From NCBI RefSeq assembly GCF_937910895.1, contig NZ_CALEMI010000138.1, positions 5,280-69,279 on the forward strand: DNA of 64,000 bases, written 5' to 3'. The notes under the pieces were generated by a model, which was given only the letters and a program-made list of their open reading frames with translations, was not told the DNA's origin and made no database searches. Positions 26,017 through 57,121 of this stretch are shown here, piece by piece; positions within the stretch are counted from its first letter, which is position 1, and every line of letters starts with the position of its first letter. The DNA comes from an uncultured Dokdonia sp. Its GTDB lineage: Bacteria > Bacteroidota > Bacteroidia > Flavobacteriales > Flavobacteriaceae. The translations under genes were made by a program, and so were the position numbers.

Positions 26017-26021
26017 GTTGT

Positions 26022-39980: not shown

Positions 39981-40020
39981 AGAAAAACCTGATTACATTT
40001 ATGTGTAATCAGGTTTTTCT
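39981..40020. terminator. bidirectional intrinsic terminator
   Basis: AGAAAAACCTGATTACA-tttatg-TGTAATCAGGTTTTTCT between convergent genes. Confidence 0.85.
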
Positions 40021-40079
40021 ATGTATACGATTTATTGGATTGAGAATCTCTTATTCCTTCAGAAATTAAAGTCTCAATA

Positions 40080-41450
40080 CTATTTCTTAAACTTAAGTTT
40101 TTTCTCAATGGCTTCTATCATAATATTTGCGATATCAAGTCCTGTTGCCGCTTCAATCCCTTCTAAGCCTGGAGATGAATTTACTTCCAATAATAAAGGT
40201 CCTTTATTAGAACGTATGATATCTACGCCTGCTACAGGAAGTCCTAAAATCTTTGCTGCTTTTACAGCAAGTTTGCGCTCTTCTAGTGTTACCTTAATTT
40301 TTGAAGCAGATCCGCCTTGGTGTATGTTTGCCCTAAACTCTCCTTTTGCAGCTTGTCGTTGCATAGAGGCTACAACCTTCCCGTTTACAACAAAACAACG
40401 TATGTCCTGACCGTTTGCTTCTTTAATGAACTCTTGTACCAAGATGTTTGTCTTTACGCTCTTAAAAGCGTTGATTACACTCTCTGCTGCCTTTGAGGTT
40501 TCGGCTAGAACAACTCCTTTCCCTTGGGTACTTTCTAATAATTTAACAATGAGTGGCGCCCCATTGACCATTTTTATAAGATCTTTTGTATCTAAAGGAG
40601 AATTTGCAAAACCTGTAATAGGGATATGAATATCGTTTTTGGCAAATAACTGTGTTGCTTGTAATTTATCTCTTGATTGTGTGATGGCATCGGCAGAGTT
40701 AAGACAATAGGTACCCATGGCATCAAACTGACGAATAAGAGCACAGGCATAAAACGTAACAGAGGGTTTAATACGAGGAATAATCGCATCAAATTCATCA
40801 ATCACGTTACCTCCTCGATATCGTATTTGAGGTTCTCTTGCATCAAACTTCATATATGCCTGCTCTACATTAAGAAATATCATCTCATGACCTCGCATAC
40901 GACCAGCCTCCATCAAACGTTTATTACTAAACAAATCTGGGTTACTTGCTAGTAAAGCAATTTTTAAACCTGTTTTCTCACTATGAATCATAGTGTACAT
41001 ATTTTCCAAATCTTCTTCTGAAATTTCAGAAACCAGATATGTAGCAGAGGGGTTTACCAAATAACGGTTTTGTAATGCCTCACGTCCTAGCAACATTCTA
41101 AATTCCATAGAGTCACGGTTTGCCAGGGTTAACTCTATCTCAAAGGTATCTTTTCCAAAGGTAATTGGAGCCTTAATCACAATTCGTTCTTCAGAAATTC
41201 CCATCGAACTTTTTACAGATCGCTTTGCGTGTACTTTTGCCTCACAGGTAATACTTATGCTTCTATTCACTTGTAAAGGATTCACCTCAAAGCTTACCCA
41301 TTCTTGATTCTCCTTAAAGAATGTTTTGATAGCATTCGCTTGTATAGACGAGGTTTTAGCACCTGAATCTACACGCGCTTTTATTGCTGGTATCCCAAAG
41401 GTTTCAAAAGAGCACCACTCTTCACTTCCTATTATTTTTAAGTTTTCCAA
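40080..41450 (-). CDS. rimK: RimK fused to an N-terminal retropepsin-like (RimB/DUF785-type) protease domain
   Basis: N-terminal [14 protein letters not shown]; C-terminal RimK motifs ([28 protein letters not shown]). Confidence 0.88.
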
Positions 41451-41524
41451 ACTAATATTTTATAAATGAATTTTAATATGATACAAATAAACATCCAAAT
41501 GGTTATTTATATATGTATTTGATT

Positions 41525-43051
41525 TTATTTTTTTCTAAGTTCAAACAAATCTTTTCGTCTATCTCTAAGGTTTTTTACAGCCCCAAACTGATTTAATTCT
41601 CTAAGCAAATCTATATCTACATCTGCGATAAGGATCATTTCTGTATTTGGGGTAGCTTCGGCTTTGATCCCATTTGTTGGAAATGAAAAATCACAAGGTG
41701 TAAAGACCATCGATTGCGCAAACTGAATGTCCATATTTTCTACATTAGGTAGATTACCTACACTTCCTGCAATGGCAACGTAGCATTCATTTTCTATAGC
41801 TCTTGCTTGAGAACAATGACGCACACGAGAATATCCGTTTTGAGTGTCGGTTAAGAAGGGAACAAATAAGATATCCATTCCTTCGTCTGCAAGTAATCTG
41901 CTTAGTTCTGGAAATTCAGAATCATAGCAAATAAGAACACCTATTTTACCACAGTCTGTGTCAAATGCTTTGATCTGACTTCCTCCCTGCATTCCCCATA
42001 CTTTTGCTTCATCTGGTGTTACATGTAGTTTTTCATATCGATCTACACTACCATCTCGACGACATAAATAGCCTACATTATATAAGCGACCATCTTTCAT
42101 TTCTGGCATACTCCCTGAAATAATATTGATGTTATAGGAGATTGAGAATTCTGAAAATTTCTGTACGATTGCTGCCGTATGTTTTGCTAGTTCTCTAATA
42201 GCGTCTGGTGTACTTAAATGGTTGTCTTTTGCCATTAAGGGTGCATTGAAGAACTCTGGAAACAAGACAAAGTCTGATCGATATCCAGCGACAGCATCTA
42301 TAAAGTACTCAGCTTGATTCAATAATTCATCTAAATCCTTATAGGGACGCATCTGCCATTGTATCAACCCAAGACGAACATTTTTTTTCTTTGTCGCTGC
42401 TTTTTTACTCGGCTTCTTGTAGTAGATATTATCCCATTCCATTAATATCGCAAAATCACCTGAGTCTCTATCACCTTCTAAGTAGCCATTCATCACTCTA
42501 GTAGGATGAAAATCATTAGATATTTGGAAGTTTAATACGGGATCATTAATTTCTTTACGCTTTACTTTTTCTATATATTCTTTAGGTGAAATATTTTCTG
42601 AATATTTGCTATAATTAGGCATTCTTCCTCCAAAAGCAATTCCCTTTAAGTTCAATTTTTCACATACTTCTTTGCGATAATCATAAAGTCTTCTTCCTAA
42701 ACGCAATCCTCTAAACTCAGGTTTGATAAATACATCAACGCCATATAGAACGTCACCATCATTTGTATGCGTGTTAAAAGAGTAGTTACCTGTAATGTCT
42801 ACATAGGTATGATTTTCTTTAAAATCATCATAATTTACAATAATAGACAACGCACAACCAGCTAGCTGTCCGTTAATTTTTATGACTACTTGTCCTTCTG
42901 GAAATTTATGAATAAGCGATTTTATGTGATGTTCTTTCCAATACGAATCTGGCATATTTGTATATGCAGAAATCATTGTAGTTTTAAGCTCTTGATAATC
43001 ATCTAAATCAAGAAATTTTAATTCGATATTTTCTATATCTTTTGTTTTCAT
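41525..43051 (-). CDS. bifunctional GNAT acetyltransferase / carbon-nitrogen hydrolase
   Basis: GNAT FRGLRLGRRLY; nitrilase triad FPEF, YEKLH, ICYD; TATCTTTG -7 box at 43065-43072. Confidence 0.9.
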   Translation of the reverse strand: MKTKDIENIELKFLDLDDYQELKTTMISAYTNMPDSYWKEHHIKSLIHKFPEGQVVIKINGQLAGCALSIIVNYDDFKENHTYVDITGNYSFNTHTNDGDVLYGVDVFIKPEFRGLRLGRRLYDYRKEVCEKLNLKGIAFGGRMPNYSKYSENISPKEYIEKVKRKEINDPVLNFQISNDFHPTRVMNGYLEGDRDSGDFAILMEWDNIYYKKPSKKAATKKKNVRLGLIQWQMRPYKDLDELLNQAEYFIDAVAGYRSDFVLFPEFFNAPLMAKDNHLSTPDAIRELAKHTAAIVQKFSEFSISYNINIISGSMPEMKDGRLYNVGYLCRRDGSVDRYEKLHVTPDEAKVWGMQGGSQIKAFDTDCGKIGVLICYDSEFPELSRLLADEGMDILFVPFLTDTQNGYSRVRHCSQARAIENECYVAIAGSVGNLPNVENMDIQFAQSMVFTPCDFSFPTNGIKAEATPNTEMILIADVDIDLLRELNQFGAVKNLRDRRKDLFELRKK

Positions 43052-43276
43052 ATATTTTAGTTGCCAAAGATACCTTTAGCTTTCTTTTAACTTGTTTTAT
43101 AGTATATACTCTTTGGAAGTATAGAAGCATATTGATTTCTATAGAGGTCTATATAGATTTGTAAATCAACACGTTTTACGTATTTCGCGTAAGCGTATTT
43201 ATATAGAACTTTAGTTACTTTCTAGATTCCTTAGGGTCAAACTGCTCAATAGGCGGCTGCTTTAATAAGACACCTA

Positions 43277-43696
43277 TTAATTTGCTTTTTTTCTAAATTG
43301 ATCACAATACAACGCAACAGCACTACGATCTTCTTTGTCTAAAAATTCTAAAGCGTCATACCACGATACCCAAATTGCGTTTTTGAACTTTTCAGGTTCT
43401 AATACTTCGATATTTACAATAGGTTTTGTTGTGATAAAGTAGTGCTTGTAGACGACTCTTTTTTCTTTCGTAATATTCCTTATAGAAATAAAATAAGTAA
43501 GCTCTTTCTTTTTTAGTTTGACACCTATTTCTTCACGGGTTTCTCTTATAAGCGATCTATAATCTGATTCCTGTTTCTTTTGAATTCCTCCTGCTAAGGT
43601 GTACTTTTTCTTGGCATCTATTTTTTCAAGCACCAAGATATTGTCCTCTTTAAAGGCTATAAGACGTGATTTATGAATTGCTTTAAAAGTTTTCAA
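43277..43696 (-). CDS. NUDIX hydrolase
   Basis: GG.QKKQESDYRSLIRETREEIG NUDIX box. Confidence 0.85.
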   Translation of the reverse strand: MKTFKAIHKSRLIAFKEDNILVLEKIDAKKKYTLAGGIQKKQESDYRSLIRETREEIGVKLKKKELTYFISIRNITKEKRVVYKHYFITTKPIVNIEVLEPEKFKNAIWVSWYDALEFLDKEDRSAVALYCDQFRKKAN

Positions 43697-43731
43697 GAAT
43701 GGTTTACGTTACATTGCGTAAAATCTAATCC

Positions 43732-44031
43732 TTATTCAAAAGGATCTTGAACTGCGTCTGGATCAGTTGCATCAAGGTCTTCATACTCTTCCTCATCATA
43801 ATCTTCCATTACTTTTTCAAGCTTAGCACTTACTTTTACCAAATATTTTGTGTCTTCTGTCACAATCTCAATAGCTTCTATTAAATCATAGTTTGCATTT
43901 CTAAACCTAATAACATCTGCATCATCATAGCCGTCAGGATATTTTTGCACTACAAGAGCTAAAATTTCTGGCGTTAGCTTTTTAAAATCTACGATAACTC
44001 TTTTAAGGTTAGGGTTTTGATTCTTTTTCAT
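43732..44031 (-). CDS. conserved small protein with acidic tail
   Basis: 99-aa ORF, RVIVDFKKLT..KYPDGY, acidic C-terminus. Confidence 0.8.
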   Translation of the reverse strand: MKKNQNPNLKRVIVDFKKLTPEILALVVQKYPDGYDDADVIRFRNANYDLIEAIEIVTEDTKYLVKVSAKLEKVMEDYDEEEYEDLDATDPDAVQDPFE

Positions 44032-44033
44032 AA

Positions 44034-45008
44034 TTACATATCTAATAGGTAAGCAAATATTAAGGGTGCTACGATAGTAGCATCAGATTCTATAATGAAT
44101 TTTGGTGTATTCATATCCAATTTTCCCCACGTGATTTTTTCATTAGGTACAGCACCACTATAAGACCCATAACTTGTTGTAGAGTCACTTATCTGACAAA
44201 AATAACTCCAGAAAGGGGTATCGGTACGTTCCATATCTTGATATAACATAGGTACTACGCAAATAGGAAAATCACCAGCTATCCCTCCTCCTATTTGAAA
44301 AAAGCCAATTCCATTAGTAGAATTATCTGTATACCAATCTGCCAGGTAAGTCATATATTCTATCCCTGACTTCATGGTACTTGCTTTAAGTTCTCCTTTC
44401 ATCACGTAGCTAGCAAAAATATTACCCATCGTACTATCTTCCCAACCAGGAACAATAATCGGTAGGTTTGCTTTTGCAGCGGCATACATCCAAGAGTCTT
44501 TTATATCTATCTCGTAATGTTTTTCTAATACTCCAGAAAGTAATAGCTTGTACATAAACTCATGAGGGAAATAACGCTCACCAGCAGCTTCAGCATCTTT
44601 CCATATTTTGACAATATGCTCTTGAATCCTTCTAAAGGCCTCTTCTTCAGGAATACAAGTATCTGTCACACGGTTTAAACCACGTTCTAACAAATCCCAT
44701 TCGTCTTGAGGAGTTAAATCGCGATAGTTAGGTACACGCTCATAGTGACTGTGTGCGACAAGATTCATAATATCTTCTTCTAGGTTTGCCCCAGTACAAG
44801 AGATAATATGTACTTTATCTTGACGAATAATTTCTGCAAATATCTTCCCTAACTCTGCTGTACTCATAGCGCCTGCTAGAGATACTAACATTTTAGAACC
44901 TTTTGCGAGTTGATCTTCATATCCTTTGGCAGCATCTACCAGAGAGGCTGCATTAAAATGCAAATAGTATGTAGACAAAAATTGAGAAATAGCTCCTTTA
45001 GTCTTCAT
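44034..45008 (-). CDS. deoxyhypusine synthase-like protein (probable homospermidine synthase)
   Basis: GAMSTAELG, TGANLEED, QIGGG, SGAVPNEKITWGK. Confidence 0.9.
   Translation of the reverse strand: MKTKGAISQFLSTYYLHFNAASLVDAAKGYEDQLAKGSKMLVSLAGAMSTAELGKIFAEIIRQDKVHIISCTGANLEEDIMNLVAHSHYERVPNYRDLTPQDEWDLLERGLNRVTDTCIPEEEAFRRIQEHIVKIWKDAEAAGERYFPHEFMYKLLLSGVLEKHYEIDIKDSWMYAAAKANLPIIVPGWEDSTMGNIFASYVMKGELKASTMKSGIEYMTYLADWYTDNSTNGIGFFQIGGGIAGDFPICVVPMLYQDMERTDTPFWSYFCQISDSTTSYGSYSGAVPNEKITWGKLDMNTPKFIIESDATIVAPLIFAYLLDM
44161..44188 (-). promoter_or_regulatory. possible intragenic ECF-motif site 10
   Basis: GTGAC-N17-GTCTTA inside the DHS-like gene, about 130 bp before the 44031 start; may be a codon coincidence. 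Confidence 0.35.
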
Positions 45009-45939
45009 CTTGATCGTATTTTAACTTATTGATATTATTTTCTTCTTGAAAACTATAAAGATTGTCATTTTCTTGATCCTGATCTTGCTCTTTGAATTTG
45101 TAGCTCAACATTTTGTAATAAAGTTTTGCGGCAAGAAAATCTGAAGACTTATCTACTTCATTAGGACATAGTTCTACAATATCAAATCCAACTACATTTT
45201 TTTGTTCGAATATACTTTTAAGGAATTCTAAGGTTTCGTACCAGAATAATCCTCCTGGCTCTGGTGTTCCTGTGCTTGGCATAATTGAAGGATCGAGTGC
45301 ATCCAAGTCAAAAGTGATATATACGTTGTCACCTAATGATTCTACAACCTTGTCCACCCAATAATCATCTACTGCCATCTCATGTGCAAAAAACACATTA
45401 TCTGGACGCATTACAGACTTTTCTGAGATATCCATACTACGAATCCCTACTTGTATTAGGTTTGTAGTTTCGTTTGCTTCGTGTAAAGCGCACGCATGGT
45501 TATAAGGTGAACCTTCGTATTCTTTTCTTAAATCTGCATGTGCATCTATGTGCAGTACTGTAAGATCTTGATAGCATTCATTAAAAGCACGTATAGCTCC
45601 TATAGACACAGAATGTTCTCCACCAAACATAGTGACAAACTTGTTGCGTTTTATATGATCCTTGATCATTTCATGTACTGTATTCACCATAGCCTCTGGA
45701 GAGCTACTTTCTGTGATAGCATCTGCTAGGTGGATTCCTTGTTTGTATACTTGAGTATCGGTTTCTATATCGTAAAGCTCCATATTTTCCGAAGCGTGTA
45801 AAAATGCTTCTGGACCTTTATCAGCTCCTTTACCCCAAGTACTTGTTCCATCATAAGGAACGGGAATTAATACTATTTTTGAAGCATCAAGGCTTGCATA
45901 TTTTTCTGGAATCCCTGCGTATGTATTAAACGTTTTCAT
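44998..45939 (-). CDS. speB: agmatinase
   Basis: GGEHSVS, DAHADL, FDLDALDP, TGTPEPGG. Confidence 0.92.
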   Translation of the reverse strand: MKTFNTYAGIPEKYASLDASKIVLIPVPYDGTSTWGKGADKGPEAFLHASENMELYDIETDTQVYKQGIHLADAITESSSPEAMVNTVHEMIKDHIKRNKFVTMFGGEHSVSIGAIRAFNECYQDLTVLHIDAHADLRKEYEGSPYNHACALHEANETTNLIQVGIRSMDISEKSVMRPDNVFFAHEMAVDDYWVDKVVESLGDNVYITFDLDALDPSIMPSTGTPEPGGLFWYETLEFLKSIFEQKNVVGFDIVELCPNEVDKSSDFLAAKLYYKMLSYKFKEQDQDQENDNLYSFQEENNINKLKYDQDED

Positions 45940-45977
45940 TGTATTTTGTTCTAATTTGTTTTGACTTAGTAAGAGGT

Positions 45978-47435
45978 TTAAATAGGCTCACTAACTTCAG
46001 GTATGGTTTTTTTTGCTTTCGCGAAAGCGTTATTAATATCATAATCATATCCAAGAATAGACAGTAATTGCTCCGAGGTTTGCTGGTTTGCAAACACCGA
46101 AGTTGTGATCTCTCCATCTTCATTGCGATCTATTAAAATATGTTTAGGTGTTGGGATCAAGCAATGCTGCAATCCACCAAAACCTCCGATGGTCTCTTGA
46201 TAAGCACCGGTATTGAAAAAGCCGATATAGAGTGGTTTTTCTTGAGTAAATTTAGGTAAATAGATTGCATTCATGTGTTGCTCACTGTTGTAATAATCAT
46301 CACTGTCACAGGTAAGACCTCCTAATAAAACGCGTTCATATTCTTTATCCCACCCAGAAATAGGCAACATCACAAACCGTTTATTAATTGCCCAAGTATC
46401 TGGCATTGTGGTGATAAATGAAGAATTAATCATATTCCACTTTTCTCGATCATTTTGTTTTTTCTGATAGAGCACTTCATAAATAGCGCCTCCTGCTTCA
46501 CCTACCGTAAAGCTACCAAATTCTGTAAAGATATTAGGTACATCAACGCCAGCCTCATCACAGGTTTGCTTAATCTGTCGGATGATCTCATCAATCATGT
46601 ACGCATAATCATACTCAAAAGCGAGCGAATTTTTTATAGGAAAACCACCGCCTATATTGAGACTATCAAGCTTTGGATTTTCTTTTTTAAGAGCTACGTA
46701 CACCTTCAAACACTTAGAAAGTTCATTCCAGTAATAAGCTGTATCACGTATCCCTGTATTAATAAAAAAATGTAGCATCTTAAGCGTTACCTTAGGATTG
46801 TCCTTAATCTCACTGTTGTAAAAAGGTACAATATTTCTATATCCTATCCCAAGTCTGGACGTATAAAATTCAAACTTAGGCTCTTCTTCTGATGCAATTC
46901 GGATTCCTATAGTATAGGTGCCGTCTATGACTTCGCTAAGTAAGTTAATTTCTTCATAGTTATCAATAATAGGTATGCAGTTTTTATGTCCGTTATTGAT
47001 AAGTCTTGCAATATTTTGTATGTATTGATCACGTTTAAAACCATTGCTTATAACATAAGTTTCATTCGTTATTTTTCCTTGTGCTTTCAGGTTTTCAACA
47101 ATATCCATATCAAAAGCAGATGAGGTTTCAATATGAATATCATTTTTAAGAGCCTCGTCTAACACGTGTTTAAAGTGTGAGCTCTTGGTGCAATAGCAGT
47201 AATTATATGAGCCTTTATAGTCATTTTCTTTAATTGCATTTGCAAACCATCCTTTTGCTCTGTTTATATTTTCAGATATTTTAGGGAGATATGTAAACTT
47301 TAATGGCGTACCATATTTTGCTGTAAGCGCCATGAGATCAATCCCATGAAAATTGAGTGTATTATTTTTAAGTGTGAACTCCTCTTGTGGGAAATCAAAA
47401 GTTTGATCTATAAGATCAATATATTTTGTTTTCAT
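45978..47435 (-). CDS. speA: arginine decarboxylase (fold type III PLP)
   Basis: YCTKSSHF, SRLG, LNIGGG, TCDSDDYY, GAYQE; directly upstream of speB. Confidence 0.88.
   Translation of the reverse strand: MKTKYIDLIDQTFDFPQEEFTLKNNTLNFHGIDLMALTAKYGTPLKFTYLPKISENINRAKGWFANAIKENDYKGSYNYCYCTKSSHFKHVLDEALKNDIHIETSSAFDMDIVENLKAQGKITNETYVISNGFKRDQYIQNIARLINNGHKNCIPIIDNYEEINLLSEVIDGTYTIGIRIASEEEPKFEFYTSRLGIGYRNIVPFYNSEIKDNPKVTLKMLHFFINTGIRDTAYYWNELSKCLKVYVALKKENPKLDSLNIGGGFPIKNSLAFEYDYAYMIDEIIRQIKQTCDEAGVDVPNIFTEFGSFTVGEAGGAIYEVLYQKKQNDREKWNMINSSFITTMPDTWAINKRFVMLPISGWDKEYERVLLGGLTCDSDDYYNSEQHMNAIYLPKFTQEKPLYIGFFNTGAYQETIGGFGGLQHCLIPTPKHILIDRNEDGEITTSVFANQQTSEQLLSILGYDYDINNAFAKAKKTIPEVSEPI
46015..46028. 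repeat. palindrome copy 8 (speA tail, AFAKA)
   Basis: Perfect 14-mer. Confidence 0.9.
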
Positions 47436-47509
47436 TATAGTGTATGTTTGAAAAATTAGAATGTGTTAGATGTTGCTTGTAAAGCAATTGAAGATATATT
47501 TCTAATAAC

Positions 47510-47680
47510 TCAAATACGAAAGATAAAAATAGTAGAAGGATCAAAGCTTTTTTGCTCCAACAGACGATACATCGTTTTAATTTCAGAAGTCAACCTGATA
47601 ATTCGGTTCCCTATCCCTAGGGTAGCTTTTGGAGTAGACTTCTTTATACTCCTGAGCCCAAATCTGAAAAAATCTTTCAT
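47510..47680 (-). CDS. candidate speA leader peptide (56-aa uORF)
   Basis: Hand translation MKDFFRFGLRSIKKSTPKATLGIGNRIIRLTSEIKTMYRLLEQKSFDPSTIFIFRI*, lying between the promoter box and speA. Confidence 0.55.
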   Translation of the reverse strand: MKDFFRFGLRSIKKSTPKATLGIGNRIIRLTSEIKTMYRLLEQKSFDPSTIFIFRI

Positions 47681-47725
47681 TTAATTAAAGGCAATTCGTT
47701 CTTTAATGTGAACTCATTATCATAA

Positions 47726-47733
47726 CAAACATA
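47726..47733 (-). promoter_or_regulatory. Bacteroidota sigma-A -7 element for the speA leader
   Basis: TATGTTTG matches TAnnTTTG. Confidence 0.55.
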
Positions 47734-47985
47734 CTAAAAAAATGTATTGATTATTTTTTTTTGAAATTTATTTTAATAAAGTAATGATTTATTAACGATA
47801 AAAATACAACTATCTAATTAGCAACGCTTAGAGACTTTTTAGAGTAAAAAATACATATTCTTCACGAATCATTATTTATGGCTATACCCGAAGAGTATGT
47901 TTTATAATTTTCTTATCAAGATATTTGGAGTAATTTATAGGCTCATATTAAAATTGCATATAAGTACATCTTCAAAATTAATAGG

Positions 47986-48171
47986 TTAACAACCATTTGC
48001 TTGATCGGTCTGAGGACAAATTGGACGATCATACGTTTTGGCTGGAGGACAACCCATAGGCCGATCACTTATATCACATATTCCCGATCCTCCCATAATA
48101 GCTTCTGAATCTGTGAGCTTAGAAATTGTCAACTTGTCTAAGGATAATTTTTTTAAAGATTCTTTTCTCAT
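47986..48171 (-). CDS. double-glycine-leader RiPP (class I lanthipeptide-like) precursor
   Basis: Leader KKLSLDKLTISKL..MGG; core has 4 Ser/Thr and 4 Cys. Confidence 0.8.
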   Translation of the reverse strand: MRKESLKKLSLDKLTISKLTDSEAIMGGSGICDISDRPMGCPPAKTYDRPICPQTDQANGC

Positions 48172-48287
48172 CTTTTATTTTTTAGGGTTTAAGATACAAA
48201 AAATACATAGCAAACCAAGTTAAAATGAATCTTAAGCGATGTATGAATCAACTATTACGCACTAAAACATGTAAGGTTTTTATTATT

Positions 48288-49994
48288 TTATGCAGATTTT
48301 TTTAAATTTTTTATATAGTATGAAGGAGTGATGCCTGTTTTTTTCTTGAAAGCTGCTGTAAACGACTCGGCAGAGTTAAAACTTGCTTCTTTGGCAACTC
48401 CTAAAATCGTATAACGATGTAGTGTTGGATTCACTTTTAACTCATTAAGAATATACTCAATACGTAAATCATTAATGTAGTGAATAAATGTCTTTCCCTT
48501 ATACGTATTAATGATTTTAGAAAGGTATTTCGTATTTGTTGACAGCTTCCTTGCCAAAGAACTAATAGTTATAGTACTCTTTAAAAATCCATTCTTAGAT
48601 TCAAAAACAAGCAATTTATCTAAGATCACAGCGACTACGTCTGGATCAATATTAAGGCTTTGAGAAGATGTTTTTAATGACGCCGATTCTTTGCTACTTT
48701 TCGTGGGTTTTTCATTTAACGCAGCAATAATAGTATCAAATCGCTCTCTGTATATTTTATGTTTCCTGATTTGAAGAAAAAACAAGAATGTTATAATAAC
48801 AAACAGAATAAGCAGGGAGAGTACTTTTGTGCTAAGACTTTGATTTTTATTCTTTAATTTTTGAATTAAAAGCTCTTTACTTTTAACTAATTCAGGAGTA
48901 TCAAACTCTGAATTTAATGTATTTGTTGTATGAATTTTCCTAGCGTTCGTAATACTATCAAATCTTATTAATTTATTAATTGTACTTAAGTGTTCTTTGT
49001 AATTATTACTTGCTTTATAATCCTTAATGAGAGAAACATACGCATCTCTTACTTCTGGAAGTATCAAATCCGTTTTTGTAAGCAAAGAGTCAACTTTTAA
49101 AAAATAACCTGTATCGTCTTTTTCATTAGAAATTAGAGATATTTTACCTAAATAAAATTGAGCAATGATATAATATTTCAAATCGTACTGAGAAGTAAGA
49201 TTTGCTAAAGATGCCCCCTTCTGTAAAAAAGAATATGCTTTATCTATGTTTTTTTTATAGAACAAATTAACCCCTTCATTAATCATAGCAACGCTTAATG
49301 CATAGGTATGATCTTTATAAATCTTATCAATTACCAAATCGTAGTAATAAGAAGCCGAGTCATATTTTTTTTCATTCCTATATGATTCTGATAAGTTTAA
49401 AGAGATTTGAACTATCACACTAGAATTTGGAAATTTCCTTTTTTGTTCAAGGTCAAGACACGTTTTATATAATATCAATGCCTCTTTATAATTTCCAATA
49501 TCCTTTTTAATATCTGCTATATTATTAAGACCAATAATTTCATAATCTTTATCATTCTTCTTTTTTGAAAGTCTCAACACCTTAAGATATTGCTGTAGCG
49601 CATTTTCATAATCATACGCATTTTGATAATACAACCCCAACCTATTATATGCGGCTATAGAGTATAAAGAATCGACACTATTACTCTCTGTTAATGACTG
49701 ATTGACAAGATCAAACTGTCTTTCTCTATCGTCTGTATAATAAGAAAGATAATTCAACGCAATAGATCGTTTTATTCTATCATTGGCCGCAGTCGCTTTA
49801 TGTAGATATGCATTAAGATATTGTATAGAAGAGGTCGTATCCTCTGCGTGTTGCGCATATTTTTTGTATAGATACTCATAACTTTCGTTTGCCAATGAAT
49901 CTGGTATTATAGAAGCGCTCTTCTGCCCTAACAAAAGAGAATTGAAACTAAAAATTAACCAAAATAAGAAATAGAACTTTGTATTTGAACGCAT
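48288..49994 (-). CDS. membrane-spanning TPR-sensor AraC-family regulator
   Basis: Signal peptide, TPRs (AYNRLGLYYQNAYDYENALQQY), TM VLSLLILFVIITFLFFL, AraC HTH (LSTNTKYLS..FNSAESFTAAFKKKTGITPSYY). Confidence 0.92.
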   Translation of the reverse strand: MRSNTKFYFLFWLIFSFNSLLLGQKSASIIPDSLANESYEYLYKKYAQHAEDTTSSIQYLNAYLHKATAANDRIKRSIALNYLSYYTDDRERQFDLVNQSLTESNSVDSLYSIAAYNRLGLYYQNAYDYENALQQYLKVLRLSKKKNDKDYEIIGLNNIADIKKDIGNYKEALILYKTCLDLEQKRKFPNSSVIVQISLNLSESYRNEKKYDSASYYYDLVIDKIYKDHTYALSVAMINEGVNLFYKKNIDKAYSFLQKGASLANLTSQYDLKYYIIAQFYLGKISLISNEKDDTGYFLKVDSLLTKTDLILPEVRDAYVSLIKDYKASNNYKEHLSTINKLIRFDSITNARKIHTTNTLNSEFDTPELVKSKELLIQKLKNKNQSLSTKVLSLLILFVIITFLFFLQIRKHKIYRERFDTIIAALNEKPTKSSKESASLKTSSQSLNIDPDVVAVILDKLLVFESKNGFLKSTITISSLARKLSTNTKYLSKIINTYKGKTFIHYINDLRIEYILNELKVNPTLHRYTILGVAKEASFNSAESFTAAFKKKTGITPSYYIKNLKKSA

Positions 49995-50119
49995 ATTTAA
50001 TTTTGAGACTTAGGGGTGCAAACAATTTTGCATCTAAAATAGTTAAATCAAAAGTATCTATTTGCTATGACGCCTGAATAGTCACATTTCACATCACTTA
50101 ATGATGGTTTTAATAGTAC

Positions 50120-50133
50120 GCTTTTGCGAAAGC
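50120..50133. repeat. palindrome variant (one mismatch)
   Basis: TACGCTTTTGCGAAAGCGTA. Confidence 0.8.
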
Positions 50134-50511
50134 GTACACAACATAGACTCCTTCAATTCGATAGTTAAGATTTAAAAACCAATTCGTATAAGACAAAAAA
50201 TAAAAATTCCTACTAGAAAATCTGTAACATAGTATCGTACCGACACGAACTTACCACAGTTATTACATTCTAATCAAAAACACTTCAAATTACTAAATTT
50301 CAAATATTTGTATTTAAAATTAAGTACTTGAATTCGCCGAATTCCTGTAAATTTTTATTGTATCTCCCTAAAAAAAAAGTGAAGTTTGAATATATGAGAT
50401 CGTACAAAAATAATAGCATTTTAGTTTAAAGATATACACACAGTAAACAGACAGACCCCTTGAATGTCTCTAAACGATCAAGGTATTTTAGTAATCATAA
50501 ATAATTAAATT

Positions 50512-50751
50512 ATGAGAGATTTATTAAAAATTGGAAGAAGTTTAAACAGTGTTGAATTAAAAGGAATTACCGCAGGTAGAAATCCTTTTATTTCTGACGG
50601 CTCAGATCAGTGTCAAGTAGGACAGTGCCCTAATGGATTGGTTTGTAACATTGTAAATGGAGAATGCATCATGCCCGGCGGTGGCGGCGGTGGTGGCGGT
50701 GGTGGAATCTGCCCAGAGAATGTTGGACAAAACTGCGATTCTCCAGTTTAA
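50512..50751 (+). CDS. Cys-rich, Gly10-containing peptide with a double-glycine-type leader
   Basis: MRDLLKIGRSLNSVELKGITAG leader, Cx4Cx5Cx6C, Gly10, Cx7C. Confidence 0.8.
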   Translation: MRDLLKIGRSLNSVELKGITAGRNPFISDGSDQCQVGQCPNGLVCNIVNGECIMPGGGGGGGGGGICPENVGQNCDSPV

Positions 50752-50847
50752 AAATATAATATTAAACTTTATAGTTGGGTTGGCTTTTAAAAGCTACCTG
50801 CTACTTTATAAGTAAGTAAATTATAGAGGGTTTAGTGAAATAAGAAC

Positions 50848-50887
50848 ATCATTCAGATATGTGCAAGTTACTACATATCTGGATGAT
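50848..50887 (+). terminator. hairpin downstream of the peptide gene
   Basis: ATCATTCAGATATGT..ACATATCTGGATGAT followed by a T tract; a second weaker hairpin near 50778-50798. Confidence 0.6.
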
Positions 50888-51290
50888 TTTTTTAGCCTCA
50901 TCTCCGTCTGTCATAGCTAAACCATAAGATCCAAACAACTCTTTTGTGAATCTTCTAAAAACTTCATATGTCGTTCTTTAGTACCTTATCTCGTTACTCT
51001 TTATCTCTATGTGTTTAACAAGGCTTGATTTTGAAATATTGTTAATAATATGTCTTCATAAAGCGCTTCTTATTTGTTTCTTGCACACTACAGCAAAACC
51101 TATAAATTTCGGAATCTAAATTTTAGATATGATTAAGGATTTGTAAAATTTCAAGTTAAGATTCTGTAAAATCAGTAACATAAAATCAACCTTTTTATAA
51201 ACTAGAATATATACTAACGTAACAAGCTTTCAAGACTTTGAAATTAATTTTATGAGCATTAATAATCAACTTTATTAAATCAAAAAACTC

Positions 51291-52853
51291 ATGAAAACTT
51301 TCAAATTACTTTTTTTTAAAATACTACTGTTAGTAGTTGTAGGAACCCACATAACGAGCTGTGAAGACGGTGAAGATGGACTTAATGGTATAAACGGTCA
51401 AGATGGCGTAGATGGACAGGATGGTGTCGATGGACAAGACGGACAGGATGGCGACGACTTTGTTATGGAAGAAACTATTTTTGCTGACAAATCCCCTACT
51501 CCTCCGTTGGTAGCAATTACACCTCAATTTAATTATGTGCAAGCGTATTCTTTAATTTCTACTCCAGATGTAATTGGGGAGAATTTCCAACTTGCAGGAT
51601 CTGCCGATGGTGCTGGTTTTTTAGTAGATGGAGATGAATATATATACGTTACAAACTGTGAGGATAGTTATGCTGTGGCTCGTATCCGTTTAGATCAAAA
51701 CCTTATTCCTATTTCTGGCGACTATTTATTAGACTCTGGTGTTGCCGATTTTGCAAGACAATGTTCTGCAACAATGTGGGAAGCTGATATCCATGGAGGC
51801 TCTGAAGATATTTTTTTATCTGCTTCAGAAAGCATTAGTCACGACGTAAAAGCAATTAATCCCCGTGTAACAACACCTACACCACAAGCTGACTTTGGTT
51901 TAGATGCTTTAGGAGAATTTTCTTGGGAAAATGCAGTCCCACTTCCTCAAAATGCATATCCTAATGCCACTGTAATTATAGGAGGAGACGATGATTCTAG
52001 TGGTTCAGAAGGTCAAATAACGATGTATTACTCTACAAATGGAGATGCTGATTTTAATAACGGTAGTATCTATGTATTACGTTACAAACAAATATCTGAT
52101 GGCGCTGGAGGCGTAGAAGATGTTGTAGCAAATACGCAATACAATGAGTCGTCATTAGATTTTGGGAGCTCATACGATGTTGAGTTTGTAGAAATTCCAA
52201 ACGGTGCTTCTCTTACTAAAAATGAAATGGAAACTGCCTGTAATGATGTATTTGCTTCACAATTTATGCGTGTAGAAGATATTGATTATCAAAAAGGAAG
52301 TGACTCAAATGCAAGAAATCTATTTGTAGCTGTTACCGGTAGGGGACCTGGACAAGGAACATACAACGATTGGGGAACCGTTTATAAATTGACATTAGAT
52401 CCTTCAAATCCTTTAGAAGGAACCCTTACACAAATTGTAAGTGGGAATACAGATACTAACAATGCAGATGGTAATCTTCCTGAGCTTCAAAGCCCAGACA
52501 ACATTACAGTAACAGAAAACTTTGTATATATTCAAGAAGATCCTAACTCTTTCAGTAGAGGGCATGCCGCTTACATTTATCAAACAGATATTAATGGAAA
52601 TAATCCCGTAGTCGTTCTTGAACTAGTTGTACGTATGGATCTTGCTGAAAATAATAGCACTGGATTAAACGGAGAATTTGGAGCACTTATCGATATTTCT
52701 GATAAAATAGGAGAACCTAATACCTTCTTATTAAACATACAGCCTCATTATTGGACAAGTGACGAATTTGCAGGATTAGATGGACACATCAACGCTACAA
52801 ATGAAGATCGCCAAGCATCTCAAGTGGTTATCTTAAGGGGGCTTCCAAGATAA
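51291..52853 (+). CDS. PhoX-like (DUF839) lipoprotein with a collagen-like linker
   Basis: Lipobox ITSC, G-X-Y repeats, TNCED, RQCSAT, WENAV, RVEDIDY, SPDNI, IQED. Confidence 0.82.
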   Translation: MKTFKLLFFKILLLVVVGTHITSCEDGEDGLNGINGQDGVDGQDGVDGQDGQDGDDFVMEETIFADKSPTPPLVAITPQFNYVQAYSLISTPDVIGENFQLAGSADGAGFLVDGDEYIYVTNCEDSYAVARIRLDQNLIPISGDYLLDSGVADFARQCSATMWEADIHGGSEDIFLSASESISHDVKAINPRVTTPTPQADFGLDALGEFSWENAVPLPQNAYPNATVIIGGDDDSSGSEGQITMYYSTNGDADFNNGSIYVLRYKQISDGAGGVEDVVANTQYNESSLDFGSSYDVEFVEIPNGASLTKNEMETACNDVFASQFMRVEDIDYQKGSDSNARNLFVAVTGRGPGQGTYNDWGTVYKLTLDPSNPLEGTLTQIVSGNTDTNNADGNLPELQSPDNITVTENFVYIQEDPNSFSRGHAAYIYQTDINGNNPVVVLELVVRMDLAENNSTGLNGEFGALIDISDKIGEPNTFLLNIQPHYWTSDEFAGLDGHINATNEDRQASQVVILRGLPR

Positions 52854-52900
52854 CAAGATCTAGTATTAGCCAATTATATTTCATTCTCGTTTTAGTATCA

Positions 52901-52923
52901 AGCAACCCTTTATAAGGGTTGCT
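52901..52923 (+). terminator. intrinsic terminator hairpin
   Basis: AGCAACCCTT-tat-AAGGGTTGCT followed by TTCTT. Confidence 0.7.
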
Positions 52924-52948
52924 TTCTTAACATATATGTCTATTTCTT

Positions 52949-54790
52949 ATGAGCACTATAAACTACTCTTCACAAATCAAATTTTCTCTTTTAAACATTT
53001 TTATTTTTGGATTTTTCTTTTCTTGTAACGAAAACTCAAAAGATACTTCTTACATACAAACCTTAGAACCTGATTGGAAAAGCACACAAGTATTATATCT
53101 ACAAGAAATCAATAAAACGATTGTCTTATTAGATAGCCTAAAAGACATATCTCCTAACGCACCAGAAGCCAAAGAAATATTTAAAAAGATACGTATTGCA
53201 TTTAAAAAAGCAGAACCTTATGCTTCGTATCTTAATCCTGAAGTAGGACATCGCATTAACAGTCCCGCCCTACCTATTTATAAAGAAGACAATGGTAAAA
53301 CTTTATATCCCATAGGATTACAAAAAATAGAGGAAAGTATTTATGAAGGAGAAAGCTCTAAAAAACAGTATAAAAACGAGTTAAAAACAACTATTGGATT
53401 ATTGAATAGTCTTAAAAAAAGTATTGAAAAAAGAGAGCTTACAGCGCAACGTTATTTCATTGCAACACACCAACAATTATTTCGTGTATTAAGTTTTTCT
53501 ATCTCAGGATTTGACACTCCTGTAAGCCAATTAGGAATTCAAGAAAGTAGGATCTCACTACAAAACCTATATGATAGCTATGTTATAAGCATTCAGAAGA
53601 TTATTCAATCTAAGAATAAAGATTTAGATATGACGTTCAAAAAACAGATAGAAGCGGCGACATACTATACCGCATCAAATCCAGACTTTGACAGCTTTGA
53701 TCGCTATACATTTATCAAAGAATATCTAAACCCTATCACACGCTCTTGGGTCGCTATTAGAAAAACATCTAAATTATGGGAGGGTACAAACTCCCAACCA
53801 TTTAATTTTGATGCACCTACTTTCTTTGAAAATGATAGTTATAATGTCTCTTTCTTTATTTCAGGAACTAATAAAAAACCTACTGATGCACAAATAAAAT
53901 TAGGTAAAAAACTATTCTTTGATAAAAAATTATCTGCAAACAATCAAATGGCATGTGCTACGTGTCACATTCCTTCCAAAGCATACACGGATGGTCTTAT
54001 GCTAAATAAGGGAAATAAAGGAAATAATTTAAAACGCAACACCCCAACTTTAATAAATACCATATTTCAAAAGAATTTCTTTTGGGATGGACGCTCACAT
54101 ACATTGATGGATCAAGTGTCATCTGTTTTTACAAATACAGACGAATTTAACTCTAATGTTCATACGTTTTCAAAAGATATTTTACAGGATTCTACATATA
54201 AAAATCTTTTTCAAGAAGCCTACCGCGGAGTGTCAAATCGAAATATTGATGTTATAAAAGCGATTGCTGCGTATGTAGCAACTCTTAATGGGTTTAATTC
54301 AAAATTCGATCGCAATATGAGAGGAGAGGAAGACACATTTACGCAAAGTGAAAAAGAAGGTATGAACTTGTTTATGGGAAAAGCACTTTGTGCTACATGT
54401 CACTTTATACCACTTACCAATGGTACAGTACCTCCGTTTTTTCAAGAGACAGAACGCGAAGTAATAGGCGTTCCTAATACCTCTGAAAATAGAGCTCTTG
54501 ATGATGACTTAGGGTATTACTGGAAGTTTAATGAGTCCCTACACAAAGGTATGTTTAAAACCCCTACCGTACGTAATGCATCATTAACCGCACCGTATAT
54601 GCACAATGGCGTATATAATACTTTAGAAGAAGTGATAGACTTCTATAACAAAGGCGGCGGTGGTGGATTAGGTTTTGATCTAGAACACCAAACTTTACCT
54701 TTTGACAATTTGAAATTAACAGATAAAGAGCAACGAGCACTTGTTGATTTTGTAAAGACCTTAACCGATACACAAGTAGATTCTTATTAA
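52949..54790 (+). CDS. di-heme cytochrome c peroxidase (MauG-like) lipoprotein
   Basis: Two CATCH motifs, RNTPTL, FWDGR, FKTPTVRN..PYMHNG. Confidence 0.9.
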   Translation: MSTINYSSQIKFSLLNIFIFGFFFSCNENSKDTSYIQTLEPDWKSTQVLYLQEINKTIVLLDSLKDISPNAPEAKEIFKKIRIAFKKAEPYASYLNPEVGHRINSPALPIYKEDNGKTLYPIGLQKIEESIYEGESSKKQYKNELKTTIGLLNSLKKSIEKRELTAQRYFIATHQQLFRVLSFSISGFDTPVSQLGIQESRISLQNLYDSYVISIQKIIQSKNKDLDMTFKKQIEAATYYTASNPDFDSFDRYTFIKEYLNPITRSWVAIRKTSKLWEGTNSQPFNFDAPTFFENDSYNVSFFISGTNKKPTDAQIKLGKKLFFDKKLSANNQMACATCHIPSKAYTDGLMLNKGNKGNNLKRNTPTLINTIFQKNFFWDGRSHTLMDQVSSVFTNTDEFNSNVHTFSKDILQDSTYKNLFQEAYRGVSNRNIDVIKAIAAYVATLNGFNSKFDRNMRGEEDTFTQSEKEGMNLFMGKALCATCHFIPLTNGTVPPFFQETEREVIGVPNTSENRALDDDLGYYWKFNESLHKGMFKTPTVRNASLTAPYMHNGVYNTLEEVIDFYNKGGGGGLGFDLEHQTLPFDNLKLTDKEQRALVDFVKTLTDTQVDSY

Positions 54791-54859
54791 CACAAATACA
54801 CAAATATTTTTTTGACTAGTAGTAGCTTAGAGTTATAAAGATTCTGTCGTGTATAAGAT

Positions 54860-55125
54860 AGTACTAAAATGAGTAGCCTATTGGTTTTGAGTAGCATCCT
54901 TTATTTCATGTTTCTTATGAGGGAGACTATGCAATCACGGAAAGACAATCTATTATTAAAATCCCAACAAAAGATAACCGCTACATCGCTTCCTTAAAAA
55001 AGGATATCAAGTCTTCTTACAACCCTACTGTGATAGAAAATGACATTGATTTATGGGATACGGTGCCTTTAGGAGAAGCCCTTAAAAAATACATCAACAC
55101 TTATAGAGAGTATTACAAAAATTAA
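54860..55125 (+). pseudogene. gene remnant (C-terminal fragment)
   Basis: E*PIGFE*HPLFHVSYEGDYAITERQ..LKKYINTYREYYKN*: about 75 open codons after two in-frame stops, no start. Confidence 0.5.
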
Positions 55126-55577
55126 AATACCAATTCATACACAGGAGTTTCATCCTCCTTGAACTCAAACAATCTTGAATAATCCATCACATTAGTAACA
55201 CCGTCAAGTGTGCATAAAAAAGCAATAGTTTCAGAAAGTCCTTGAAACAGCATATCTTTATCTGTTGGATTGGATGGTTTTACCCCTTTATGATGAAGTG
55301 GCAGCGTATAACCACAAGCTTTTAAAAACACAGCTTCTATTTGTAACAATTCTTGAGGTGAATATCCATTAAATTTCCTTCCTAATCCTTGATGTACTTT
55401 CCCTACATAGTTGAGCACAATAGAACCATGACCATCAGAAAGATGCTTCCAAGCCTCTGTATGATCAAGAATATTTCCAACTGCACAAGACTTACAACAT
55501 TCTGGATGTAAGGTATTTTTATGAAAAGCGGTGTATAATTTTGTAATTGCTTGTTCTAATCTTTTAGGCGTATACAT
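55122..55577 (-). CDS. conserved hypothetical Cys-cluster protein
   Basis: ECCKSCAVGNILD; 151 aa. Confidence 0.8.
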   Translation of the reverse strand: MYTPKRLEQAITKLYTAFHKNTLHPECCKSCAVGNILDHTEAWKHLSDGHGSIVLNYVGKVHQGLGRKFNGYSPQELLQIEAVFLKACGYTLPLHHKGVKPSNPTDKDMLFQGLSETIAFLCTLDGVTNVMDYSRLFEFKEDETPVYELVF

Positions 55578-55664
55578 AGCATTCTTTTTACGGATTAAAA
55601 TACTACAAATTCATAGAATAACCATAAAAATTAACACTATCTGAAGGATCCTTTTTCTGAGTAC

Positions 55665-55678
55665 GCTTTCGCGAAAGC
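55665..55678. repeat. palindrome copy 9 (divergent intergenic)
   Basis: Perfect, extends to TACGCTTTCGCGAAAGCGTA. Confidence 0.9.
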
Positions 55679-55996
55679 GTATAAATAGACAAAATACTCC
55701 TGCATCATCTGTAGAACAAGAATTATTAATATTTAAAATAAGAACAAAAAATCAAAGTTAATTTTCATAACCGTAGGTAGGGATTTTTAGCATTAAGTTG
55801 TTACTTTAGTAAGCTATCACAGATTGATACATTTTTAACACTTTGACAATATAATATTTAAAACAATAACACTTTCTACGCTATGTCTCTCGCATCACCG
55901 ACTACATGCTAGAAATAATACTATTCCTATATTTGTTACTAGTTCTTTAACCAATTATAAACTAAAAACCCATATTTCTCAAAATTACACACACTT

Positions 55997-57121
55997 ATGA
56001 GTAAATATTATTTAACACTTACTACATTCCTTTTTACACTATTACTATCCTGTGGAAATGATGACAATTACATCCCAATAAGTGAAACCGATGATGATCC
56101 TATAATGACTGATGATGAAGGAGGCACAGATAATATGGGCGTCACTATTGACCTTACCGCGGTTCCATTTACAACCTTATCTGAATATGGTTTTTTTGAT
56201 GGGGAATTAAAAAACCTAATCCCTAATGATGGCGTTCTTGAATACTCACTTATAAATACCCTGTTTTCTGACTACTCTAAAAAAAAGCGCTTTATATGGA
56301 TGCCAGAAGGGGTTACAGCTACTTATGATGCAGATGATACATTATTAGTTTTTCCTGTTGGCACAATTATTATAAAAAATTTCTTCTATGATAATGTACT
56401 TCCCCAAAATGCAAGACGTATTCTTGAAACACGTCTTCTTATAAACACGATAAACGGATGGGAATTTGCAGATTATATTTGGAATGAATCACAAACAGAA
56501 GCTATCTACAATCTTGACGGAAGTAATGTGGATATCATGTGGGAATTAAATGGCGAAACAAGATCTGTTAATTATAGAATACCAAGCGAAGCCGAATGTC
56601 AAACCTGCCATAAGACAGGTGACACCTCTGTTCCCATTGGACCAAGACCTCAAAACCTTAATAGACAATTTACATACACAGACGGCACCACAGCAAATCA
56701 GTTAGACAAATGGATAGAAGAAGGGTATTTACAATCTGCTCCAACAGATATAAATGCTTTGGTAGATTGGCAAGATACAAGTGCTCCATTAAAAGAGAGA
56801 GTGCGTAGTTATTTTGAGATTAATTGTGCACATTGCCATATAGACGAGGGGCATTGCTCATACAGACCCATACGTTTAGACTATACATCATCTATTCTTG
56901 ATGAGAATATTGGAATATGTGTAGAACCTGAAGAAGATTTAGGAAATGGAATTTCACACATTATTAGGCCTAACAACATAGGGCGATCTGCTATGTATTT
57001 TAGATTGAATACGACTGCCGAAGAAGTGCGCATGCCACTTTTAGGAAGAACACTTATACACGATGAAGCAATAGTACTTCTCGAAGAATTTATAAACAAC
57101 TTAGACATAGAATGTGAATAA
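55997..57121 (+). CDS. SO2930-like di-heme c-type cytochrome lipoprotein
   Basis: Lipobox LLSC, LFSDYSKKKR, FPVGTIIIKNF, CQTCH, CAHCH, MPLLGR. Confidence 0.8.
   Translation: MSKYYLTLTTFLFTLLLSCGNDDNYIPISETDDDPIMTDDEGGTDNMGVTIDLTAVPFTTLSEYGFFDGELKNLIPNDGVLEYSLINTLFSDYSKKKRFIWMPEGVTATYDADDTLLVFPVGTIIIKNFFYDNVLPQNARRILETRLLINTINGWEFADYIWNESQTEAIYNLDGSNVDIMWELNGETRSVNYRIPSEAECQTCHKTGDTSVPIGPRPQNLNRQFTYTDGTTANQLDKWIEEGYLQSAPTDINALVDWQDTSAPLKERVRSYFEINCAHCHIDEGHCSYRPIRLDYTSSILDENIGICVEPEEDLGNGISHIIRPNNIGRSAMYFRLNTTAEEVRMPLLGRTLIHDEAIVLLEEFINNLDIECE

Follow-up and report, generated by a model that had tools for sequence, protein, structure and literature searches.

What is a 61-codon gene with a lanthipeptide-like leader doing in a stretch of DNA that carries no lanthipeptide synthetase? 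The question is raised by an open reading frame (ORF) on the reverse strand of a 64,000-nucleotide stretch from an uncultured Dokdonia sp. of the Flavobacteriaceae (assembly GCF_937910895.1, contig NZ_CALEMI010000138.1, positions 5,280 to 69,279), referred to here as the window. Judging from sequence comparisons, we think it probable that the ORF is a functional lanA-type gene, coding for a satellite precursor of a class I lanthipeptide that would be modified in trans. The gene is also the second member of a conserved pair of genes, the first, upstream member being a regulator with a signal peptide, a tetratricopeptide repeat (TPR) domain, a transmembrane (TM) helix and an AraC-type DNA-binding domain.

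The leader of the predicted precursor carries the motif L9-S-L11-D-K13-x5-L19, read directly from the translation, which is of the LxLxKx5L type, and it ends in GG at residues 27-28. The LxLxKx5L motif, the GG end and a C39 protease have been described for class I precursors of Bacteroidetes (Walker et al., 2020, PMC7268733), and the first-pass annotation of this DNA, made without database searches, was right to regard such leaders as typical of Bacteroidota class I lanthipeptides. The core contains exactly four Ser/Thr and four Cys residues in strict alternation, and its last residue is Cys. Numbered from S1, the pairs are S1-x2-C4, S7-x5-C13, T18-x5-C24 and T27-x5-C33, such that each Ser/Thr is N-terminal to its own Cys, at spacings of i+3, i+6, i+6 and i+6. 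The earlier parsing of the ORF and of its four alternating pairs is thus exact, and the S/T-x5-C spacing that it had pointed out in three of them is borne out by the translation. On shuffling of the core, a Ser/Thr before every Cys in alternation occurs at P = 0.014 (1/70). This is modest alone, and the weight therefore rests on conservation.

The leader is matched by the NCBIfam model for class I lanthipeptide leaders, NF038153 (lant_leader_L1a), with 25.0 bits over residues 1-23 against a cut-off of 22. An identical protein in a public collection carries PF28317 (Lant_leader_dom), and the Protein Atlas gives 'class I lanthipeptide family', with scores at the level of a lead. Two other peptide classes were tried and rejected. 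The model for radical SAM-modified peptides with GG leaders (TIGR04149) gave 11.6 bits, far too low against its cut-off of 25. The invariant C-terminal Cys had suggested a lanthipeptide with a C-terminal aminovinyl-cysteine (AviCys) of the epidermin or mersacidin type. This is unlikely because no LanD-type flavoprotein was found in the genome: PF02441 has a single match, a 405-residue frame of the size of CoaBC on contig C159, and none in the synthetase cluster on contig C31 that is described below.

Enzymes that could act on such a precursor are encoded elsewhere in the genome, the assembly of which consists of 169 contigs and is 99.7% complete. Within the window, tblastn with the genome's own proteins found no LanC, LanB, peptidase-containing ABC transporter (PCAT) or HlyD, in agreement with the first-pass annotation, which had seen no LanB, LanC or peptidase-ABC exporter there. 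It had proposed a search of the genome for lanB, lanC, PCAT genes and similar leaders, and had named the lack of any synthetase as the result that would tell against its reading. Three LanB/LanC loci were found: LanB (PF04738, three matches at 388-490 bits) and LanC (PF05147, three matches at 135-191 bits) are paired on contigs C31, C15 and C66. There are two complete C39-ABC exporters, on C31 (with HlyD) and on C85, neither of them in the window. Small leader-type ORFs are spread over the genome and number about 19, compared with three synthetase loci, and the leaders closest to that of our precursor are in the C31 cluster.

The C31 locus starts with two regulator-peptide units on the reverse strand, a fusion of VKOR and thioredoxin, a third regulator, and four or five leader peptides. 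It continues with LanC, a LanB that is split into two proteins (Lant_dehydr_N, 743 residues, and Lant_dehydr_C, 295 residues), a C39-peptidase ABC transporter and HlyD, and is flanked by unrelated housekeeping genes. The VKOR-thioredoxin fusion, of 528 residues, is in the middle of the cluster (G000 C31:22016-23599; L055:10017-11603) and has a paralogue on C145. There are hints from this that some of the peptides of the C31 cluster also receive disulfides.

Both genes of the window unit resemble genes of this cluster. The precursor leader is identical at 17 of 28 positions to two regulator-paired peptides of C31, which is the best match in the genome, and the window regulator is 40-42% identical to the two C31 regulators that go with these same peptides. 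A neighbour-joining tree of the regulators (BLOSUM62, calculated without support values) places those of the window type together, as a clade sister to the clades embedded in clusters. In relatives, for example G024 (contig C9), G006 (contig C13), G010 (contig C31) and G020 (contig C17), regulators of the sister clades share a contig with LanB at a distance of about 10 kb, and in each case the window-type unit is on a separate contig.

The distribution of the peptide follows that of LanB. The comparison covered 33 other Dokdonia genomes, 12 LanB-positive and 21 LanB-negative, and the peptide family was scored at E < 1e-5. Of the 12 genomes with LanB, 8-9 have the family; the search of the 21 without LanB found it in none. 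Several of the peptide-positive genomes have a LanB of the C31 type only.

A wider survey was made of 200 Flavobacteriaceae genera, with one genome each and a threshold of E <= 1e-30 for the regulator. LanB is present in 15 of the 200 genomes and NF038153 leaders in six, five of which are among the 15 with LanB. The regulator family is found in 66 genomes, including 13 of the 15 LanB-positive ones, and is within about 5 kb of LanB in nine. Downstream of strong regulator matches, an LxLxKx5L peptide was found at 12 of 20 loci in LanB-positive genomes and at 0 of 20 loci in LanB-negative genomes, where any peptides present have other leaders and no Cys. It is concluded that the regulator family is broader than lanthipeptides, and that it is the NF038153-type leader that goes with LanB. 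At three loci in LanB-negative genera (L150, L158 and L159), the regulator is followed by a basic, Cys-free peptide with a GG leader (for example ...KGG followed by GDGPIDTDKIKRPKRGHRD) and then by a secreted protein of about 295 residues. These look like a different peptide class that shares the regulator family.

The precursor itself is conserved. Full-length homologues are present in eight other Dokdonia genomes, in the same arrangement; cultured strains with the family include D. pacifica DSM 25597 and D. ponticola CGMCC 1.16527. A search of public data with a profile built from 18 family members returned 54 peptides, most of them unnamed and one called 'class I lanthipeptide' by NCBI. The family alignment retains the leader, the GG, the elements SG(x)0-3C and S-x-P-x2-3-C-P-P, and a terminal T-D-Q-A-N-G-C, with the GG and the C-terminal Cys invariant. 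No frameshifted or stop-containing copies were seen among close relatives in the homologue and profile searches. The most informative variant is L180, a metagenome contig of 638 nt that contains the gene preceded by about 90 nt of conserved sequence, beyond which the similarity stops abruptly. It has 85% amino acid identity, and its core differs by four synonymous changes and one replacement of D by VG, which adds one codon. Because the divergence of the core is mainly synonymous, we take the precursor to be under purifying selection.

The number of Cys residues in the family is 3, 4, 5, 6 or 7, and the number of Ser/Thr tracks it; these counts come from related sequences and are not independent trials. 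Many members show perfect alternation, with Ser/Thr and Cys at 3/3, 4/4 or 6/6. A Ser/Thr stands ahead of every Cys in 40 of the 52 Cys-bearing profile matches, and in all close relatives. The Cys count is odd (3, 5 or 7) in 15 of 53 relatives. Odd counts, together with the joint gain and loss of Ser/Thr and Cys, fit thioether pairs and argue against a design based on disulfides only.

The similar spacing of the pairs has a further origin in the history of the gene. The segments coding for the second and third predicted rings, SDRPMGCPP and TYDRPICPQ, are the product of an internal DNA duplication: 18 of 20 aligned bases are identical, with one 3-nt gap (codon-shuffle P ~0.0005). In the family alignment, the duplicated unit stands in place of a T-C-x-x-T-x-C-x-S-C segment found in 6-Cys relatives. 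The three equal ring spacings are therefore in part a by-product of a recent duplication.

The first-pass annotation called the precursor an orphan. This holds in so far as there is no local synthetase. It is overstated in that the gene belongs to a conserved regulator-peptide unit with sister copies in the C31 cluster. All Dokdonia loci with a homologue have the peptide directly after such a TPR-AraC regulator, and tandem doubling of the unit is frequent. In this genome, a leader peptide follows six of the eight regulator paralogues, and three of these units are inside the C31 cluster. We also collected 77 related regulator loci, from Dokdonia, Aquimarina, Kordia, Leptobacterium, Tenacibaculum and others. 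A match to a hidden Markov model of the leader was present within 700 nt downstream and on the same strand in 55 of them, and on the opposite strand in none. Two loci (L049 and L052) keep the exact neighbourhood of the window, including genes for arginine decarboxylase, agmatinase and a protein like deoxyhypusine synthase. In D. pacifica, D. ponticola and uncultured Dokdonia, the second regulator of tandem units stands out (L063, L065, L067 and L068). The tblastn matches of these second regulators are near full length, yet the frame from the first ATG has only 45-453 residues, and these copies therefore use another start codon or are interrupted.

The structure of the regulator was predicted using AlphaFold2, with a mean pLDDT of 87. 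The model has an N-terminal signal or anchor helix (residues 3-22), a TPR solenoid (32-328), a single long helix that spans the membrane segment, a disordered linker and a C-terminal AraC-type helix-turn-helix (HTH) domain (451-567). Hydropathy peaks at residues 385-394, and a strong hydrophobic segment at about 389-410 is the predicted TM helix. Because the TPR domain sits between the signal/anchor helix and the TM helix, its predicted place is outside the cytoplasm, and we infer that it faces the periplasm, with the HTH domain facing the cytoplasm. The best Foldseek matches of the TPR domain in the PDB are LGN/Pins and designed TPRs, and kinesin light chain (KLC) is also matched; the matches include peptide-binding TPR proteins. 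At lower rank there are Rap receptors, including the Rap protein of phage phi3T with bound pheromone. The matches are generic.

Taken together, these observations suggest how the product could be made. The gene would be transcribed from a promoter of its own, located in the 90 nt of conserved sequence ahead of it, probably under the control of the adjoining regulator. The leader would dock the peptide on a LanB of the C31 type, by which up to four Ser/Thr (S1, S7, T18 and T27) would be dehydrated. LanC would add C4, C13, C24 and C33 to them, so that as many as four (methyl)lanthionine rings would follow one another without overlap, and the C39-ABC/HlyD exporter would cut after the GG and secrete a product of 33 residues. 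The predicted monoisotopic mass of the core is 3436.49 after four dehydrations, compared with 3508.53 unmodified and 3504.50 with two disulfides. Such a product might act as an antimicrobial, as a signal or in both ways.

Several observations weigh against this reading. The precursor gene is on a different contig from every LanB and LanC, so that the usual clustering with a synthetase is not seen. It is likewise apart from LanB/LanC in genomes G006, G010, G020, G024 and G027. The pairing of enzyme and substrate is based on similarity, and on co-occurrence among genomes that are related and hence not independent. In other genera, related regulators are in some cases followed by peptides with no Cys or only one, and for this reason the leader type gives no guarantee of lanthionine rings. 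In 6-Cys relatives, some Ser/Thr directly adjoin Cys (TC, SC), and the simple model of consecutive one-to-one rings fails for these relatives. The precursor studied here has an even number of Cys residues, and the VKOR-thioredoxin fusion of the C31 cluster makes disulfides chemically possible. In L180, unrelated sequence is found where the window has the 3' end of the regulator. Finally, the sequencing runs listed with the locus are DNA metagenomes only, with no RNA run among them.

The even Cys count and the VKOR-thioredoxin fusion lead to an alternative, the disulfide bonding of which the first-pass annotation had also offered. Here the peptide would be exported without modification by LanB/LanC, cleaved by a PCAT after its GG leader and closed by two disulfides, in the periplasm or extracellularly, in the manner of an unmodified class II bacteriocin. 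The lack of a synthetase in the window, the GG leader, the presence of two complete exporters, on C31 and C85, and the VKOR-thioredoxin paralogue on C145 would all suit such a peptide, and the neighbouring second peptide gene of the window, described below, encodes what resembles a disulfide-rich GG-type peptide. We consider it unlikely, since the leader type is tied to LanB (five of six genera with the leader are LanB-positive, against a base rate of 15 in 200) and the peptide family is missing from all the LanB-negative Dokdonia genomes searched. The odd Cys counts of its relatives, the co-variation of Ser/Thr with Cys and the upstream Ser/Thr for every Cys in close relatives count against it as well, and the alternative is weakened by them, though for a member with four Cys it is still a possible one. 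Modification in trans, as proposed in the first-pass annotation, fits the genome, and thioethers are favoured by the NF038153 leader, the likeness to C31, the co-occurrence with LanB and the odd Cys counts. It could also be asked whether there is a product at all, given that the ORF is short and that no RNA run is listed with the locus. It is however extremely improbable that the frame is open by chance or is a remnant in decay, in view of the full-length conservation across species, the invariant Cys and GG, divergence that is dominated by synonymous changes, the conserved block upstream and a match above cut-off to a curated family model.

A different question is what the mature peptide is for. 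It might be chiefly a signal, which would be sensed by the outward-facing TPR domain and lead to autoinduction of its own gene and perhaps of the C31 cluster. This reading concerns function and is for that reason compatible with a lanthipeptide identity; nisin and subtilin are lanthipeptides that induce their own genes. It would account for the order of regulator and peptide in 55 of 77 loci, with none in the opposite-strand control, for the fact that most regulator paralogues of the genome have a peptide of their own, and for a predicted topology with TPR outside and HTH inside. The TPR fold is like that of peptide-binding TPRs, including Rap with bound pheromone. The TPR domain and the core are both fast-evolving, with mean identities of 0.29 and 0.18 respectively, compared with 0.51 for the HTH domain and 0.44 for the leader. 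The two show a weak partial correlation of 0.21, which is confounded by co-inheritance and does not discriminate, because both parts are inherited together. The case is built on adjacency, topology and fold, and a regulator that controlled the peptide gene but answered to another cue would be just as likely to lie next to it. The best fold matches, LGN/Pins and designed TPRs, are generic, the conserved palindrome near the regulator is in its other spacer and not upstream of the precursor, and L180 has no regulator immediately upstream. We therefore regard a signalling role as possible but doubtful. The same tentative standing applies to its extension, in which each regulator-peptide unit would be a private channel for autoinduction or kin recognition, with the mature (lanthi)peptide as the ligand of the TPR domain. 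If the signalling reading is true, the window unit would have split off, as a copy, from the units by which the C31 cluster is controlled.

The satellite lanthipeptide precursor that we favour is of a kind already known, namely the class I lanthipeptide precursors of Bacteroidota (PMC7268733; NF038153/PF28317; the PedA15 peptides of Pedobacter lusitanus and pinensin-type clusters), which it resembles in its leader motif, GG end and core rich in Ser/Thr and Cys. As in the PedA15 and pinensin-type clusters, the genome encodes a LanC, a C39-ABC exporter and a LanB whose N- and C-terminal parts are two proteins. For PedA15.2, the protease LahT150 has been used (cited in PMC12328550). The difference is that the gene is more than seven genes from any LanC and is paired with a membrane TPR-AraC regulator. 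The RODEO neighbourhood is defined as within seven genes of LanC (Walker et al., 2020, PMC7268733), and mining centred on clusters would therefore miss this precursor. Trans-encoded precursors are also known, from the prochlorosins, in which many ProcA precursors scattered in cyanobacterial genomes are served in trans by one ProcM (mentioned in PMC7268733). The prochlorosins share with the present case a precursor far from its synthetase and divergent cores behind a conserved leader. They are class II (LanM) peptides of cyanobacteria with Nif11-type leaders, whereas here there would be class I LanB/LanC in the Flavobacteriaceae and the precursor has its own dedicated regulator. In the literature searched, no characterized product matching the core family SGIC...S.P...CPP...TDQANGC was found, and no characterized lanthipeptide from the Flavobacteriaceae turned up. 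Precursors of Pedobacter lusitanus are reportedly also found away from clusters.

The regulator has partial parallels. In the nisin (NisK/NisR) and subtilin (SpaK/SpaR) systems and in the GG-leader pheromone circuits of Firmicutes, a leader-bearing peptide gene likewise adjoins a sensor-regulator, and the RRNPP proteins (Rap/NprR/PlcR) have a TPR-type receptor domain that is alike by fold match. According to its predicted topology, the regulator of the window unit would be a membrane-bound one-component sensor, with its TPR domain facing outward and an AraC-type HTH domain, and is neither a histidine kinase/response regulator pair nor a cytoplasmic RRNPP protein. A receptor/pheromone pair of the RRNPP type was considered and rejected: adjacency and a TPR fold are present, but the TPR domain is predicted not to be cytoplasmic. 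No description of the TPR-AraC/peptide pairing was found in the literature searched.

These results imply that some Bacteroidota lanthipeptide precursors escape cluster-centred genome mining despite a recognizable leader. The precursor is a compact substrate that lends itself to testing; four rings in a row are predicted for it, and two of them arose when a ring unit was duplicated. Membrane TPR-AraC regulators like the one next to it pair one-to-one with leader peptides across marine Flavobacteriaceae, often adjoining LanB. Should the regulator indeed sense its peptide, the signalling design would be a new one, and it would be a case of peptide-based cell-cell signalling in Bacteroidota, of which we know no established example. 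If it does not, the regulator is still likely to be a switch by which silent clusters could be woken. The features of the locus are collected in Table 1.

Table 1. Features of the precursor locus, in positions of the window.
Feature	Position	Strand	Basis or remark
Probable lanA-type precursor gene, 61 aa	47986..48171	-	ATG-to-TAA ORF and translation
Leader, codons 1-28, GG end	48088-48171	-	
Core, 33 aa	47989-48087	-	
Stop codon	47986-47988	-	
Predicted ring-2 unit SDRPMGCPP, first duplicate	48043..48069	-	Local DNA alignment to 48010-48036
Predicted ring-3 unit TYDRPICPQ, second duplicate	48010..48036	-	Local DNA alignment and family alignment
Conserved upstream region, ~90 nt	48172..48262	-	Kept in L180
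T-rich block	48191-48210	-	Also ahead of orthologous peptides in L063-L068 and L078
Membrane regulator, 568 aa	48288..49994	-	Pfam TPR_12, HTH_18/HTH_AraC; 116 nt upstream of precursor
Perfect 15-nt palindrome GAATTCGCCGAATTC (GAATTCG-C-CGAATTC)	50330..50344	.	In 517-nt divergent spacer between regulator and second peptide gene
Second exported-type peptide gene, 79 aa	50512..50751	+	ORF; divergent from regulator

The spacers of the locus were searched for control elements. Promoters in Bacteroidota have a -7 element, TAnnTTTG, and the T-rich block upstream of the precursor resembles this and may be its promoter. As L180 retains the gene and its upstream region, the peptide-promoter unit can occur without a regulator immediately upstream. 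A scan for sigma-70 promoters and terminators was at or below shuffle expectation, an Rfam scan of 40000-56000 matched no family, and a repeat search of the 116-nt spacer between regulator and precursor found no convincing palindrome. The C31a-type units have an inverted repeat, GTCGAAATTC-N4-GAATTTCGAC, directly after the regulator stop codon and about 85 nt before the peptide, which is conserved across Dokdonia species (G000 C31:16872-16894; loci L071-L076 and L079). An operator shared between the window unit and the cluster units was looked for and rejected, because this repeat is absent from the window unit. The perfect palindrome on the other side of the regulator is a candidate operator, although it is not upstream of the precursor under study; in L046, L047 and L050, GAATTCGCGGAATTT is found at the corresponding place, about 335-346 nt ahead of the ATG of the regulator.

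The second peptide gene of the window has no Pfam or NCBIfam match. Its product contains six Cys residues and a run of ten Gly, and its GG-type leader is of another kind, with AG at the end. Homologues, with the sequence ...IQGA before the cleavage site and RRPFIGSGC... after it, are found at the same relative position in L046, L049 and L050. The gene at 51291-52853 on the forward strand codes for a predicted lipoprotein of 520 residues with a short collagen-like G-x-D repeat near its N-terminus, and also adjoins the cassette in L049 and L050. Elsewhere in the genome, contig C160 of G000 contains arrays of small genes for Cys-rich peptides (25110-26530 and 31292-31810), with no regulator or synthetase nearby. 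The arrays mix two leader types, MKKKNLKSLSLHK...GG and MLKNISNLxxxL...GG.

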